Origin: Escherichia phage mEp234
Length of the DNA stretch: 40,804 nucleotides
Sequence record: PV340539
Direction: 5' to 3' (one strand)
Both the position numbers and the translations under genes were made by a program. How positions within the stretch are numbered: the first letter of the stretch is position 1; each line of letters begins with the position of its first letter. The notes under the pieces were generated by a model. That model did not search any database, was not told the origin of the DNA, and was given only the letters and a program-made list of their open reading frames with translations. Positions 2,219 to 9,211 of this stretch are shown piece by piece.

Positions 2219-2482
2219 ATGAAGAAGCGTTTTTCCGACGAACAGATCATCAGTATTCTCCGCGAAGCCGAAGCTGGGGTACCCGCCCGTGAACTCTGCC
2301 GCAAGCATGCCATTTCCGATGCCACGTTTTACACCTGGCGTAAGAAGTATGGCGGTATGGAGGTGCCTGAAGTTAAGCGCCTGAAGTCGCTTGAGGAAGA
2401 GAACACCAGACTCAAGAAGCTGCTTGCCGAAGCCATGCTGGATAAAGAGGCGCTTCAGGTGGCTCTTGGGCGAAAGTACTGA
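2219..2482 (+). CDS. IS3-family transposase OrfA (HTH DNA-binding part)
   Basis: 87 aa '[46 protein letters not shown]...' typical IS3/IS407 OrfA with leucine zipper. Confidence 0.9.
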
Positions 2483-2505
2483 CGACAGACCAGAAGCGGG
2501 AAGCC

Positions 2506-3339
2506 GTGATGTTGATGTGTGATGCGACCGGTCTGTCGCAACGTCGTGCCTGCAGGCTTACAGGTTTATCCCTGTCGACCTGCCGCTATGAGGCTCACCG
2601 TCCGGCTGCTGATGCGCATTTATCAGGGCGCATCACTGAGCTGGCACTGGAGCGCAGGCGTTTTGGCTACCGTCGTATTTGGCAGTTGCTGCGCCGTGAA
2701 GGGCTTCATGTTAATCATAAGCGCGTGTACCGGCTTTATCACCTCAGTGGCCTGGGCGTAAAACGCAGAAGACGTCGTAAAGGGCTGGCAACAGAACGTC
2801 TGCCGCTGCTCCGTCCGGCGGCGCCCAATCTGACCTGGTCGATGGATTTCGTCATGGACGCACTTTCCACCGGTCGCAGGATCAAGTGTCTTACCTGCGT
2901 CGATGATTTCACAAAGGAATGCCTGACGGTCACTGTTGCCTTTGGGATTTCAGGCGTTCAGGTCACGCGTATTCTGGACAGCATTGCACTGTTTCGAGGC
3001 TATCCGGCGACGATAAGAACTGACCAGGGGCCGGAGTTCACTTGCCGTGCACTGGATCAATGGGCCTTTGAGCATGGTGTTGAGTTGCGCTTAATCCAGC
3101 CGGGCAAGCCAACGCAGAACGGATTTATTGAGAGCTTTAACGGACGATTTCGCGATGAATGTTTGAATGAGCACTGGTTCAGCGATATCGTTCATGCCAG
3201 GAAAATTATTAATGACTGGCGGCAGGATTATAACGAATGCCGCCCGCACTCCACGCTGAATTATCAGACACCGTCTGAATTTGCAGCGGGCTGGAGAAAG
3301 GGTCATTCTGAGAATGAAGATTCCGACGTTACTAACTGA
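2506..3339 (+). CDS. IS3-family transposase OrfB (DDE catalytic domain); probably expressed as OrfAB fusion by -1 frameshift in 2446-2482
   Basis: 277 aa with '...[54 protein letters not shown]...'; frame -1 relative to orfA, open from 2446. Confidence 0.9.
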
Positions 3340-3368
3340 GTGTTGTATCTAATCGTGGGGGCAGGTCA

Positions 3369-3513
3369 CAACGGCGCTGTAGTTTGTCCATTCTTTCTTT
3401 TTTGTCTGGCGATCGTAATACTGAACGCCAGCACGGATGTTGAATCCGATATTTTCCCCGGCCTGAAACTCTCTTGCGGGCTTGTTTAGTCTTACAGTAA
3501 TCGAATGTGCCAT
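3369..3513 (-). pseudogene. 5' fragment (~48 codons) of a gene translationally coupled to erf, truncated by the IS element; weakly SSB/OB-fold-like
   Basis: ATG overlaps erf stop (TAATG); 'MAHSITVRLNKPAREFQAGENIGFNIRAGVQYYDRQTKKKEWTNYSAVV' then runs into the IS inverted repeat; no continuation beyond the IS. Confidence 0.45.
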
Positions 3514-4118
3514 TAAGCAGCCGCTCCTTCTAATTCGTCTCGTCTGATGTTGTAAACGTCCTGCGCTTTGTGCTGCTCCGGTGTTCCTTCGAGCATCTTC
3601 CACGCTTTGGCGAACGCCTGTTTAAGCTCTTCCACGGTGTTTTTTTGCATTGCTGCGTCAGTGAATGCTTTTAGAACCTGTTCAGGTGTAGGTGATGGTT
3701 TTGATTGCTTTGCTGCTGCGTTCTGCTGATGTTTATGTTCGTCGGTATCTGCATCTTTCGCATCATCAATGCCGAACAAACCATTAAGGCAATACTTGCG
3801 CGCATAAGAGCTTGTAGCTCCAGTAACTTGTGCAGAATCCATTCCTTTCTTGCTTTCTTCCTCTCGTGCAAGAGCAGTTGCCGTATGACTGTTTTCGCCA
3901 TCGGTAATAGTTGCCGTGGCTTTCACGTAATACCGATCACCAATCAACACAACTTCATCGCTGATTGATAAAAACAGGCCATTCAGTAACGGCTTAACGC
4001 CTTCAAGAATGTCTTCGCAGCTTCTGTATTTATATTTACCGAATGAGTTGTACTGATTCTTTGGCGCGTTCAGATTCTCCTGAATAGCTGCCAGTCTTGC
4101 GTAAAATTCTTTGCTCAT
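3513..4118 (-). CDS. erf: Erf-family ssDNA annealing recombinase (P22 Erf-like)
   Basis: 'MSKEFYARLAAIQENLNAPKNQYNSFGKYKYRSCEDILEGVKPLL...' recalled as matching P22 Erf; likely start is the internal ATG at 4118 (track ORF 3513..4148). Confidence 0.85.
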   Translation of the reverse strand: MSKEFYARLAAIQENLNAPKNQYNSFGKYKYRSCEDILEGVKPLLNGLFLSISDEVVLIGDRYYVKATATITDGENSHTATALAREEESKKGMDSAQVTGATSSYARKYCLNGLFGIDDAKDADTDEHKHQQNAAAKQSKPSPTPEQVLKAFTDAAMQKNTVEELKQAFAKAWKMLEGTPEQHKAQDVYNIRRDELEGAAA

Positions 4119-4128
4119 ATGATTGTTC

Positions 4129-4299
4129 TCAGAATGGACACGGCCCAAGGAAATAACGCTGATTTAATACTTCAGTCTTTGCCGCATTTAAAAATACGCG
4201 AACACCTTCACGATCTCCCTTCTGGCGATACATTAACGCCTGCTGCGTGTACATGCGTCTCTGTAACTTGCTCTCCTTCACTGTGGTTGCAAGTGACAT
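4129..4299 (-). CDS. Small ORF (56 aa) between kil-like and erf; possible Arf-like accessory gene. A 56-aa ORF in another frame (4208..4378) overlaps it, so only one is likely real
   Basis: Strong RBS GAAGGAGATATTCATG; 'MSLATTVKESKLQRRMYTQQALMYRQKGDREGVRVFLNAAKTEVLNQRYFLGPCPF'; below the ORF-track size cutoff. Confidence 0.3.
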   Translation of the reverse strand: MSLATTVKESKLQRRMYTQQALMYRQKGDREGVRVFLNAAKTEVLNQRYFLGPCPF

Positions 4300-4667: not shown

Positions 4668-5636
4668 TTAGTAGGTTATTTTTGTTGCGAATACTTCGCC
4701 TTTTACGATGGCTGTTATGATATTTTTAGCAACATCTTCTGATGCACCAACCTTGATAAGGTCAGCAAGTATTTTGTTATTTACTTCTTTCCGGTGAGCT
4801 TTATCCTTTGCTCTACGCTCTTCTTCGTCCTTGATTCTTTTTTCTTCTGCTATTCTGGCTTGCTCTTTTGCTTCAGCCTCGCGCCGGATTCGTTCTGCCT
4901 CCTCCTGTGCTTTTCGGCGTTCTGCTTCAATTGCCACCTGCTTTTCTCTTTCAGCTCGTTCTGCTGCCTCTTTTGCTTCGCGCTGTGCTCGTTGCTCGGC
5001 TTCAATGCGTTCACGCTCTGCACGTTCCGCTGCGGCCTTAGCTTCTGCTTCTCGCCTTGCTGCTGCTTCAATTTCGGCTTTTGCCTTTGCTTCGGCTTCA
5101 GCTCTGGCTTTCTCTTCAGCTTCTCTTTTTAAGCGTTCTTCATGCTCTCGCTTTTCCTGCTCCGCTTTGAGTCTTGCCTCTTCTCTTTGGCGGTCAAATT
5201 CGCGATCCATCAAAATCGCTATTTCATGGTCAGACTCAATTTGCTTTGCGAGAGCTTCAGCTGCTGCCTTAGCTTCTTCTTCGGCTTTAATCCGTGCCTG
5301 CTCCTCCTCATAATCAGTAAGAGGCTGACGCGCCTTGGCTTTCAGCTCATCAAGTCGATCACGCACTGTCTTGCGGTTGGCATCAATTAGCTTTGGAATT
5401 TCCTTCAGTTCAGCAACAAGGTCTTTTCCAAGACCATCGAGATATGTTTTCGTCTGCGCAACTTTATACGCCAGAGAAGCGATCTCCTTTCTGCCCTTTG
5501 CCGTTGTGATATCAGGCACAAAGGACATAACTTCACGTTCAACCTTTTGGAGAATTTCTTCAATCTGGTCGGCAGACTGAAATACAGTCATTGCATTTGC
5601 TTTTTCAATAACAACTAAATCTGTTACTTCACTCAT
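4668..5636 (-). CDS. Early-operon protein with long E/A/K/R-rich coiled-coil central region; function unknown
   Basis: RBS GGAGGATATATG; 322 aa from MSEVTDLVV; central ~200 aa of '(A/E)EAKA...RREAEA' repeats; spurious low-complexity plus-strand ORFs overlap. Confidence 0.7.
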   Translation of the reverse strand: MSEVTDLVVIEKANAMTVFQSADQIEEILQKVEREVMSFVPDITTAKGRKEIASLAYKVAQTKTYLDGLGKDLVAELKEIPKLIDANRKTVRDRLDELKAKARQPLTDYEEEQARIKAEEEAKAAAEALAKQIESDHEIAILMDREFDRQREEARLKAEQEKREHEERLKREAEEKARAEAEAKAKAEIEAAARREAEAKAAAERAERERIEAEQRAQREAKEAAERAEREKQVAIEAERRKAQEEAERIRREAEAKEQARIAEEKRIKDEEERRAKDKAHRKEVNNKILADLIKVGASEDVAKNIITAIVKGEVFATKITY

Positions 5637-5794
5637 ATATCCTCCGTCAAAAAAATTGCCCTCACACTGGAGGGCAAAGAAGATTTCCAATAATCAGAAC
5701 AAGTCGGCTCCTGTTTAGTTACGAGCGACATTGCTCCGTGTATTCACTCGTTGGAATGAATACACAGTGCAGTGTTTATTCTGTTATTTATGCC

Positions 5795-6121: not shown

Positions 6122-6505
6122 TCACCTTGCTGTCAGTTGTTTTGATTTCCTGTAGCCTGCCGCGTAAAGAGCTACATTTGGAAGACATACACCAGTTTCT
6201 GGTTGCCTATGCCCAAACTCATTCGCGTACACAATGGCCGCTCTCTCCAGATTGCGTCTGTATTCTTTCTGTTGCCAGATCACGTCCTGTGCCATGAACT
6301 TAATTGGCTTAGCGTCTTCTATGCGCTCAGGCGTTTCGTGAGTACCTTTAGCCTGAATCTGCGCTCTGCTTAGAGTAGGGCGGTGTAATACTTCTGAACT
6401 TATTGCTTCTTCGCGGGCCAGTACGCCGTTAGCTAATGCCTTTGCCTTTAAACGCTCACGACGACGAGAACGTGAATTGCCTTTGAACTGAGTTCTGCGT
6501 GTCAT
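6122..6505 (-). CDS. N: N-type transcription antiterminator, P22 gene-24-like
   Basis: Arg-rich N-terminus 'MTRRTQFKGNSRSRRRERLKAKA'; C-terminus '...LPNVALYAAGYRKSKQLTAR' recalled as matching P22 gp24; first gene after pL/nutL. Confidence 0.8.
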   Translation of the reverse strand: MTRRTQFKGNSRSRRRERLKAKALANGVLAREEAISSEVLHRPTLSRAQIQAKGTHETPERIEDAKPIKFMAQDVIWQQKEYRRNLERAAIVYANEFGHRQPETGVCLPNVALYAAGYRKSKQLTAR

Positions 6506-6753: not shown

Positions 6754-6817
6754 AGTATCACCGCCAGTGGTATTTATGTCAACACCGCCAGAGATAATTT
6801 ATCACCGCAGATGGTTA
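6754..6817 (-). promoter_or_regulatory. pL promoter with operators oL1-oL2-oL3, lambda type
   Basis: oL1 'TATCACCGCCAGTGGTA' (6756-6772), oL2 'CAACACCGCCAGAGATA', oL3 'TATCACCGCAGATGGTTA'; -35 TTGACA / -10 GATACT on minus strand. Confidence 0.9.
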
Positions 6818-6965: not shown

Positions 6966-6993
6966 GCAAAGAAAACCCGGCGCGGTGGCCGGG
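6966..6993 (-). terminator. t-imm-like intrinsic terminator ending the cI-side leftward transcript
   Basis: Hairpin 'cccggccaccgcgccggg' + UUUUCUUUG on minus strand, directly after the acidic-protein stop; lambda-like flank. Confidence 0.7.
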
Positions 6994-7000
6994 TTGGAGA

Positions 7001-7426
7001 TTATTTTCTAGATGATGTTGGGGACCAAGGTAACGTTATAGTATCTAACACTGTGTTTTTGAACATATTTTCAAAAACTGTTTTTGTACATACATATACA
7101 TAATTTTCAAAAAACCAAGCATTTTCATTATAAAAATCCTCAGTTACTTCTTCATCGAGGTCACACTCAAATGTTAGTGTCAAGGTAGCCTCTGCCTTGA
7201 ACAATACATCCTCACCATCATCAAAATCTTTTTTATCGCGAGGGAAACCAGTTATCGATGGCTTAACTTCAATAAAGAGCCAATTTCCATCTTCATCTTT
7301 TTGAGGAACAACGTGATGCTCAGAAAATTTTAAGCTATATTTTCCGCCTTCAGAATTATCACTGTCGTCGATAAAAAGGGAAGAACCCTCGAGATCAAAT
7401 CCCTTAAAGCGAATTTTATCAAGCAT
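7001..7426 (-). CDS. Strongly acidic 141-aa protein of unknown function, third gene of the rex-slot cassette
   Basis: ATG overlaps hicB-like stop (TGATG); D/E- and aromatic-rich ('DDSDNSEGG', 'DKKDFDDGED', 'ECDLDEEVTEDFYNENAWFFENY'); track ORF 7001..7462 starts at a TTG, the ATG at 7426 is preferred. Confidence 0.6.
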   Translation of the reverse strand: MLDKIRFKGFDLEGSSLFIDDSDNSEGGKYSLKFSEHHVVPQKDEDGNWLFIEVKPSITGFPRDKKDFDDGEDVLFKAEATLTLTFECDLDEEVTEDFYNENAWFFENYVYVCTKTVFENMFKNTVLDTITLPWSPTSSRK

Positions 7427-7899
7427 CAATGTGGCACTCCGTTGTCTACTGAAACTTCCCAATAGGTCTCTTCTGTACGTCTACGGGATGAGAAGAAAGT
7501 AACTTCTCTAACATCCCTCGGTTTTTCAAAGTGGTAGTGAACCTCTTTTTTCCCATTAACTGACTCACTGACAGCCTGTTTTACATAATCGTTTAAAGTC
7601 ATATTCTTAGCTTTAGCAGCTAAATATGCTTTTTTATGCAGGGATTCACCTATCCGGATGTTAAACGAACCACTCATTGTCTTATCTGGAGATTTTCCTA
7701 TCTCTTCACAAGTGGAGAGGTAATCGTCCACGGCCTCCTCAAAGGCTGCACGGAGTTCTGCAACCGTTGCACCCTCATAAGTGACGAGATCATTTATACA
7801 TTCGAGTTTTCCATGCATCACCCCATCTTCAAATGAAATGCTGGAGCTACCATAGTAACCTTTGTATTTCATCAAGTTATTCATGATCATCAATCTCAT
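7426..7899 (-). CDS. HicB-like antitoxin-family protein with ~45-aa C-terminal extension (start ambiguous: 7899/7890/7884/7872)
   Basis: '...MKYKGYYGSSSISFEDGVMHGKLECINDLVTYEGATVAELRAAFEEAVDDYLSTCEEIGKSPDKTMSGSFNIRIGESLHKKAYLAAKAKNMTLNDYVKQAV' matches the HicB fold/RHH pattern; overlaps hicA-like 3' end. Confidence 0.7.
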   Translation of the reverse strand: MRLMIMNNLMKYKGYYGSSSISFEDGVMHGKLECINDLVTYEGATVAELRAAFEEAVDDYLSTCEEIGKSPDKTMSGSFNIRIGESLHKKAYLAAKAKNMTLNDYVKQAVSESVNGKKEVHYHFEKPRDVREVTFFSSRRRTEETYWEVSVDNGVPH

Positions 7900-8131
7900 C
7901 TAACAGCTGTTTAACTTCTTCCAAGACGTACCTTTTGAGGGTGTTTTCAGGATGAGGCTCATGAAAAATGACCAATCTATCAACACGTTGGTTGTAAAAT
8001 TTACGGCCAGAACCTCGTTTAGCATTCAAAAGCTTGAAGCCATACTGGTTCATGAGAGTAACGAACTCATCCCAAGTAAAATTTTTGGGTAAGCCGTCTA
8101 ACTTTGACTTTAGCTTTTCCTTTCTTCCCAC
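7877..8131 (-). CDS. HicA-like (YcfA-fold) toxin-family protein, GTG start
   Basis: 84 aa; '...GFKLLNAKRGSGRKFYNQRVDRLVIFHEPHPENTLKRYVLEEVKQLL' resembles the HicA motif but has GSGR where GS(N/H)H is expected; toxin-first order as in hicAB. Confidence 0.6.
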   Translation of the reverse strand: MGRKEKLKSKLDGLPKNFTWDEFVTLMNQYGFKLLNAKRGSGRKFYNQRVDRLVIFHEPHPENTLKRYVLEEVKQLLDEIDDHE

Positions 8132-8157
8132 GAAGGATACATCCTCTGTTAAAGGTA

Positions 8158-8180
8158 GTGCAACTGAAATCTAGTTGCAA
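8158..8180. promoter_or_regulatory. Imperfect palindrome GTGCAACT-n7-AGTTGCAA upstream of hicA-like start; candidate operator/promoter of the cassette
   Basis: Inverted repeat 7/8 match, ~30 bp upstream of the GTG start at 8131. Confidence 0.3.
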
Positions 8181-8291
8181 GCTATGCTATCTATAGACAA
8201 AATGTTTCATTGTTATATCAGAAGATACCCGATCTGTTTCACCTTCAACTACTATAATTTGTTATAAGCTATCAACCGGTGGAACTGCGAA

Positions 8292-8390
8292 TTAGCCGCT
8301 GGGTGTTGCGTATCCATCGATGATAAACCATGCCATAAACCCCATAGCTACGATGAACACCAAGATCGGAAACACTATACCAATTCTCAT
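8292..8390 (-). CDS. Small hydrophobic ORF (32 aa, single predicted TM helix) between cI and hicA-like
   Basis: RBS AGGGA-n7-ATG; 'MRIGIVFPILVFIVAMGFMAWFIIDGYATPSG'; below ORF-track cutoff. Confidence 0.3.
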   Translation of the reverse strand: MRIGIVFPILVFIVAMGFMAWFIIDGYATPSG

Positions 8391-8494
8391 GATTTTATCC
8401 CTGTCTACCCATGCTTCCTGGGCACCAGCGGCTCGTTACTCGGCATCACCCTTAATCCGCCGCCCCATGTGTTTGTTGTGATCCGTTGCTGGCC

Positions 8495-9211
<717 letters not shown>

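Follow-up and report, generated by a model that had tools for sequence, protein, structure and literature searches.

The window analysed in this work is a 40,804-nucleotide (nt) stretch of DNA from Escherichia phage mEp234 (sequence record PV340539), and the subject is hicC, a gene for a putative chaperone that lies in it directly behind a toxin gene and an antitoxin gene (Table 1). The open reading frame (ORF) runs on the minus strand from an ATG at 7426 to a stop codon at 7001-7003 (141 codons; product termini MLDKIRFKGF...LPWSPTSSRK), exactly as delimited in the initial annotation, which had given no strand. The upstream gene encodes HicB (PF05534, E 1.5e-18, 66.9 bits against a cut-off of 21), and its start at 7884 (MNNLMKYKG) agrees with homologues and with EF120460.1, a curated immunity-region record in which the same coordinates are labelled hicB. 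HicA was identified by matches to PF07927 (32.1 bits, cut-off 27) and to phrog_8887 ("toxin"), and its gene is labelled hicA in EF120460.1. By these domain matches the neighbours that had been called HicA- and HicB-like are genuine; as adjacent genes with HicA and HicB domains they form a HicAB type II toxin-antitoxin system, and hicC is the third gene of a tricistronic operon with them. The hicB stop and the hicC ATG share one base (GTG CCA CAT TGATG CTT GAT), which bears out the TGATG overlap described earlier. That hicC is a real gene is established by its full-length homologues, its conserved motifs and the conserved overlap between hicB and the third gene.

The structure of HicC was predicted with AlphaFold2 (predicted local distance difference test score (pLDDT) 79, predicted template modelling score (pTM) 0.73). 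The model consists of antiparallel strands at residues 5-19, 28-44, 47-62 and 76-88 followed by a long helix at 103-122, and this predicted four-stranded antiparallel sheet with its long helix corresponds to the SecB fold. When the model was compared to the PDB using Foldseek, the best 18 matches were all SecB entries. The best of these was 5mtw, the Mycobacterium tuberculosis (Mtb) protein Rv1957 with the peptide of the HigA1 chaperone addiction domain (ChAD) (E 1e-5, template modelling (TM) score 0.65-0.70), and E. coli SecB (1qyn) was aligned with a TM score of 0.64, so that on the model the fold appears closest to that of a chaperone from a toxin-antitoxin-chaperone (TAC) system. Four predicted viral structures matched at E<=0.001, two of which, the best included, are annotated as SecB. 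No DNA-mimic or immunity-protein fold, such as those of Ocr, ArdA or the colicin immunity proteins, was present among the structural matches listed for the HicC model. The initial annotation had not recognised the family and had advised structure prediction and Foldseek as a check; that the family was not placed is understandable, as only structure comparison links HicC to SecB.

A second line of evidence was obtained from HicB. Its AlphaFold2 model has a folded core at residues 1-110, with no secondary structure predicted past residue 110 and a pLDDT <50 for residues 122-152. The tail at 113-152 contains six aromatic residues and reaches past the 119-position PHROG HicB profile, the end of which is the HYHF box. 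Comparable tails were found in all 41 aligned HicB proteins of at least 146 amino acids (aa) (33-52 residues, ~5 aromatics on average, conserved H-x-H box); in these 41 long homologues, H118 is invariant and H116 nearly invariant. Across the HicB proteins of three-gene loci, a K-E-x-H-x-H-F box, a Trp ~25 residues on and a terminal His are conserved. HicB proteins of 124 and 132 aa end directly after the ribbon-helix-helix (RHH) domain, and these belong to two-gene loci that have no third gene. The tail and the third gene co-occurred in every three-gene locus examined, and both were absent from both two-gene loci. As expected of a ChAD, the HicB extension is C-terminal, predicted to be disordered, aromatic and without counterpart in the two-gene homologues (n=2).

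Two shorter HicB proteins were examined and set aside. A 114-aa HicB was rejected as a natural tail-less, chaperone-less variant, since its gene is cut by an insertion sequence (IS) element at a contig end, and a 119-aa HicB was rejected as a short-tail exception, since its gene carries a frameshift and belongs to an otherwise normal three-gene locus. The IS-cut gene (Enterobacter kobei, L008:2501-2901) encodes a core 96% identical to that of mEp234 HicB and is cut exactly at the core/tail junction; its last 85 nt match a transposase-bearing repeat found in 1,827 E. coli genomes. If the logic of TAC systems applies, an antitoxin truncated in this way might no longer depend on the chaperone.

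The hicA-hicB-hicC arrangement was found in six Enterobacterales genomes (Pantoea, Kosakonia, Kluyvera, Yersinia, Erwinia), the loci of which were retrieved as tblastn-confirmed relatives, and in four of the six it lies between a cI-like repressor and an N-like gene. A second, paralogous E. coli module (HicB of 158 aa, HicC of 144 aa) is located in the nin region of lambdoid prophages (L009/L010:2260-3396), between hok/gef and DUF968/rusA/Q, and its HicB was present on 137 contigs. With copies in the cI slot and in the nin region, the module is thus not confined to a single moron slot. The same gene order was observed in Vibrio, within an integrase/AlpA/VapE island similar to a phage-inducible chromosomal island (PICI), and on a wastewater contig. 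The third genes of the nin-region, Vibrio and wastewater loci matched the HicC profile hidden Markov model at E 1e-17 to 1e-42. In every related locus examined the third-gene ATG overlaps the hicB stop, either as TAATG or TGATG or by 4 to 8 nt. The module, usually carried on prophages, was recovered from Enterobacterales, from Vibrio and from the wastewater contig, and hicC was never found without hicAB among the loci sampled. The earlier suggestion of a third component of the pair was upheld by the translational coupling of hicC and by the joint conservation of the three genes.

A Pseudomonas aeruginosa prophage was also observed to encode a cI-like repressor, HicA, a 146-aa HicB and then a 149-aa third gene product (L017:2438-2887). 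This product falls outside the HicC family (8 bits) and has no Pfam match; it carries the motif LYPYLR, which resembles LFPYAR of SecB and LYPYIR of Rv1957. It may represent a bridge at the sequence level from canonical SecB to the HicC-like chaperones.

HicC had no match in Pfam, NCBIfam or PADLOC, and PHROGs assigns it to phrog_19522, a family of "unknown function". Relatives were collected by using a word-indexed search, which returned 12 sequences, all enterobacterial "hypothetical proteins", and an exhaustive profile search of 1.84 billion cluster representatives, which returned 60 clusters at E<=1e-3, mostly of 130-155 aa (the resulting family size of ~60 clusters refers to clustering at 50% identity). 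Full-length homologues are 57-99% identical to HicC, and the motifs N-x-W-F-F-x-N-Y and L-P-W are common to the family. None of the four libraries tried, and hardly any sequence record, carries an annotation for this family; the record of phage mEp506 (PV340542.1, 2025) labels an identical protein "HicC chaperone". Parts of the HicC profile were also matched by 4-15 short stretches in each of several giant proteins (P0023, 3615 aa; P0047, P0051, P0061 and P0071), in several cases on the N-terminal strands of the profile; these matches may reflect either a beta-hairpin motif that is repeated or an artefact of composition.

Based upon the predicted fold, the HicB tail and the conserved gene order, we consider it highly probable that HicC is a SecB-fold chaperone and the third subunit of a tripartite TAC module, hicA-hicB-hicC, on the lambdoid phage mEp234. 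In the proposed mechanism, HicB would neutralise the HicA toxin, and its disordered, aromatic-rich tail of ~40 residues, serving as a ChAD element, would make HicB prone to aggregation and sensitive to proteases. HicC, probably as a tetramer, would bind the HicB tail and keep HicB functional, perhaps already during HicB synthesis given the translational coupling. In the lysogen the hicABC module would be silent. Were HicC to be titrated away, with an abundant, nascent structural protein of a superinfecting phage as the most plausible cause, the loss of free HicC would lead to degradation of HicB and release of HicA, whereupon growth and phage production would stop. Binding of HicC to the tail, chaperone addiction, protease involvement, phage sensing and defence are proposed here by analogy with Mtb HigBA1-Rv1957, Mmet-HicAB-SecB^TA, E. 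coli HigBAC and CmdTAC.

TAC systems are a known kind; HicAB-type examples exist, and one prophage TAC occupies the slot next to cI. Their hallmarks are a SecB-like third gene and a disordered C-terminal ChAD on the antitoxin, which binds the chaperone via aromatics (Bordes et al. 2016, PMC5105189; Mets et al. 2024, 10.1101/2024.02.24.581848). Validated TACs comprise Mtb HigBA1-Rv1957 and three more, one of which is of the HicAB type with a HicB ChAD at 119-159 (PMC5105189). E. coli HigBAC is located downstream of cI in a lambdoid prophage, and its HigC, for which the lambda tail protein gpV and the ChAD compete, senses gpV through aromatic motifs (10.1101/2024.02.24.581848). In CmdTAC, CmdC is captured by newly made T4 capsid protein, which leads to ClpP-dependent loss of the antitoxin (Vassallo et al. 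2024, PMC11618068). By analogy with HigC (gpV) and CmdC (T4 capsid protein), the roles of modulator and trigger sensor that had been suggested for the third protein would fit HicC (10.1101/2024.02.24.581848; PMC11618068).

The mEp234 module was compared to each of these systems. Mtb HigB1-HigA1-Rv1957 (PDB 5MTW) is built on a HigBA pair, whereas mEp234 has HicAB, and Rv1957 (181 aa) and HicC (141 aa) have a structure-based identity of 13-14% with no significant sequence or profile similarity. Mmet-HicAB-SecB^TA of Methylomonas methanica (Bordes et al. 2016, PMC5105189) has the gene order hicA-hicB-chaperone, as in mEp234, and in both HicB proteins the RHH domain is followed by a ~40-aa Trp-containing C-terminal extension (119-159 vs 113-152); compared by eye only, the two HicB proteins look clearly divergent. 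The HicAB-type TACs of that study are chromosomal and come from environmental bacteria, whereas the mEp234 module is carried on a coliphage. HigBAC (E. coli NT1F31; Mets et al. 2024, 10.1101/2024.02.24.581848) and CmdTAC (Vassallo et al. 2024, PMC11618068) are prophage-borne like hicABC, HigBAC shares with it the slot downstream of cI (the RexAB slot in lambda), and in both systems aromatic motifs within a disordered antitoxin tail allow the chaperone to stabilise the antitoxin. The trigger proposed for hicABC, in which a structural protein of a phage competes for the chaperone, is modelled on these two systems. The toxins differ, being a ribonuclease (RNase) in HigB, an ADP-ribosyltransferase in CmdT and HicA in mEp234, and the tails differ in that the HigA ChAD has ~97 aa with four aromatic motifs ~30 residues apart whereas the HicB tail has ~40 aa with three aromatic patches. 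Housekeeping SecB (E. coli, H. influenzae; PF02556) has no detectable sequence similarity to HicC, and HicC is encoded in a toxin-antitoxin operon, not in the housekeeping secB operon, with no SecA-binding function implied.

Several results weigh against the assignment of HicC as a TAC chaperone. The HicC fold comes from one AlphaFold2 model built on a shallow 10-sequence alignment, and the five models ranged in pLDDT from 45 to 79. The SecB profile PF02556 gave no match at E<=1 to HicC, none at E<=1 to 51 family members (which had scattered chance Pfam matches only) and none at E<=10 to four further third-gene products, three of which are family members. A search of PDB sequences with the HicC family profile (hmmsearch) returned nothing at E<=10, and profile-profile alignment (hhalign) of the family with E. 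coli SecB, Rv1957 and the Rv1957 family (21 sequences) gave probabilities of 0.2-0.35%, the value for the Rv1957-family alignment being 0.35%. PADLOC (2023) matched none of HicA, HicB and HicC, and a search of the literature on HicC, HicABC, mEp506, mEp234 and HK106 found no paper on a HicABC system. The contrast between tailed and tail-less HicB proteins was drawn from ~10 three-gene loci and only two two-gene loci. The remaining point concerns the toxin: in an alignment with E. coli HicA (sequence checked against 6hpb), mEp234 HicA has no His before H57.

Further searches place these nulls in context. PDB sequence profile searches started from the 10- and 51-sequence HicC alignments gave no meaningful match, and hhalign of the HicC family with the P. 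aeruginosa third gene was not significant; the non-significant partial alignments fall on equivalent strand-4/helix regions. Rv1957 itself has a sub-threshold match to PF02556 (17.9 bits against a cut-off of 26, with relatives at ~18 bits), HicC has none, and Rv1957 was not found by phmmer with E. coli SecB. HicC lacks sequence homology to SecB detectable by Pfam PF02556 or by profile-profile match, and it is therefore described here as a SecB-fold or "SecB-like" protein and not counted as a proven SecB family member by sequence. Among the 14 HicA gene contexts surveyed by Gerdes, no chaperone class is mentioned.

In E. coli HicA, the catalytic histidine of the G-S-H motif is H23. Where canonical HicA has G-S-H, mEp234 HicA reads GSGRKF and its relatives GS[K/R]RKF; within this HicA clade H57 is nearly invariant and H60-P61 invariant. 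Because the canonical His is missing, textbook HicA RNase activity is not to be assumed here, and HicA of the hicABC clade may use different catalytic residues or have a different activity.

Three other explanations of HicC were weighed. It is improbable that a SecB-fold HicC modulates the pair otherwise, by binding HicA as a second antitoxin or by binding the HicB core and tuning operator binding, with the tail serving, e.g., as a degron. The tight linkage to hicAB and the SecB fold would suit such a role, but the SecB-like proteins of characterised toxin-antitoxin operons all act on an antitoxin C-terminal extension (PMC5105189; 10.1101/2024.02.24.581848; PMC11618068), and the joint presence of tail and third gene in all three-gene loci, with the loss of both in the two two-gene loci, points to the tail as well. 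Very improbable is a general export or holdase chaperone, i.e., a phage-encoded SecB substitute that is linked to hicAB by chance in a moron slot. Known SecB^TA chaperones can substitute for E. coli SecB (PMC5105189 supplement) and viral proteins annotated as SecB exist, but the stop/start overlap and the three-gene layout are kept across distant hosts and across the cI slot, the nin region and the PICI-like island, and among the sampled loci hicC always accompanies hicAB.

The third explanation arose from composition. HicC contains 30 Asp and Glu residues (21%), 15 Lys and Arg and 21 Phe, Trp and Tyr (isoelectric point (pI) 4.36, net charge -15 at pH 7), so the acidic and aromatic-rich character reported in the initial annotation is correct; the nucleic-acid mimic or nuclease-immunity function that was read from it is not what the predicted SecB fold indicates. 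The HicC relatives are acidic (median pI 4.48). E. coli SecB (pI 4.26, charge -14.2) and Rv1957 (pI 4.49, charge -14.2), the sequences of which were checked against the PDB, are as acidic as HicC, and its composition is therefore normal SecB composition. That HicC is a nucleic-acid mimic, nuclease-immunity or anti-restriction protein, guarding phage or cell from a nuclease or inhibiting the HicA RNase by RNA mimicry, can hardly be maintained, as the charge, the many aromatics and the proximity to an RNase-type toxin gene that speak for it are met by an acidity that does not discriminate, by a SecB fold with no mimic or immunity fold among the PDB matches listed, by an antitoxin function already supplied by HicB and by a presence of hicC that tracks the HicB tail and not HicA.

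Table 1 Features of the hicABC region in the mEp234 window
Feature	Position	Strand	Description
hicC	7001..7426	minus	141-aa acidic protein, predicted SecB fold, proposed SecB^TA-type chaperone
hicB	7426..7884	minus	152-aa antitoxin: N-terminal HicB domain, ribbon-helix-helix domain, C-terminal tail
candidate ChAD tail, HicB residues 113-152	7429..7548	minus	KEVHYHFEKPRDVREVTFFSSRRRTEETYWEVSVDNGVPH
hicA	7877..8131	minus	84-aa toxin, HicA domain; 3' end overlaps hicB start
cI prophage repressor	8495..9208	minus	HTH_3 + Peptidase_S24; cI in EF120460.1, pRM upstream
intrinsic terminator Timm	6974..6995	minus	8-bp GC-rich stem then T run; Timm in EF120460.1
pL promoter	6754..6782	minus	TTGACA-17-GATACT; pL/oL in EF120460.1; downstream boundary of the slot
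N antiterminator gene	6505..6122	minus	beyond pL; N_peptide PF25694 match

The position of the module in the phage bears on its probable role. In EF120460.1, pRM, cI, hicA, hicB, "hypothetical protein mEp23403" (the hicC ORF) and Timm follow one another on one strand, and then come oL/pL and N. From this order the three genes fill the rexA-rexB slot of lambda, and the flank of the hicABC region matches the lambda rexB region. Lambda RexAB has the same position and transcription unit as hicABC, between cI and Timm, but the proteins and the mechanism are unrelated. The segment 6900-8250 of the window was 100% identical to the lambdoid coliphages mEp234 and HK106 and 99.1% identical to mEp506, and the exact hicABC module was present in three phages among 50,697 records and in 6 of 5,426 complete E. 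coli genomes. Like RexAB, hicABC is expected to be expressed in the lysogen, and it would presumably exclude other phages; from the rexAB slot, the transcription with cI and the precedent of other systems, exclusion of superinfecting phages is the likely role of the module.

More tentatively, it is possible that HicC senses phage within a HicABC superinfection-exclusion system, one standing in for RexAB in mEp234, HK106 and mEp506, that its SecB-fold family is too divergent for sequence-based TAC surveys and defence catalogues, and that the effector chemistry of HicA may be non-textbook. RefSeq and most phage records list the protein as a "hypothetical protein", and the present assignment would make it the chaperone of a three-part toxin-antitoxin module. 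The module lies in the classic immunity region of its phages. These lambdoid coliphages are well studied and grow on E. coli K-12, which makes hicABC an easy model for SecB-like chaperone gating of toxin release and for the phage proteins that are sensed. The HicC family was missed by Pfam SecB, NCBIfam and PADLOC and found only by structure, and TAC surveys built on SecB sequence profiles probably undercount divergent SecB-fold chaperones. If HicC is indeed the phage sensor of a divergent family, the number and range of chaperone-gated prophage defence modules have been underestimated.

The transcription of the module was considered from its flanks. The Timm hairpin (6995..6974) begins 6 nt past the hicC stop and ends the transcription unit made up of cI, hicA, hicB and hicC. 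The interval between cI and hicA (8132-8494, 363 bp) contains no convincing ORF, and a promoter scan of it gave no consensus promoter on the minus strand; hicABC may be expressed by pRM read-through alone or from its own HicB-regulated promoter.

Two further observations were made elsewhere in the window. The first 20 kb was 100% identical to the mEp234 record except for ~1.5 kb, and an ORF at 2506-3339 (plus strand), in the region ~2300-3500, encodes an IS3-family transposase with rve, rve_3 and HTH_21 domains. An IS insertion near 2300-3500 likely explains the uncovered ~1.5 kb, in which case the window is an IS-carrying copy of the phage or prophage. Lastly, a 340-aa ORF at 4668-5690 (minus strand) has a long Glu/Ala/Arg/Lys-rich centre, predicted to be coiled-coil-like, and no Pfam match; it is located in the early-left operon, flanked on one side by small ORFs adjoining the ERF recombinase gene (3513-4148) and on the other by the genes that lie downstream of N.
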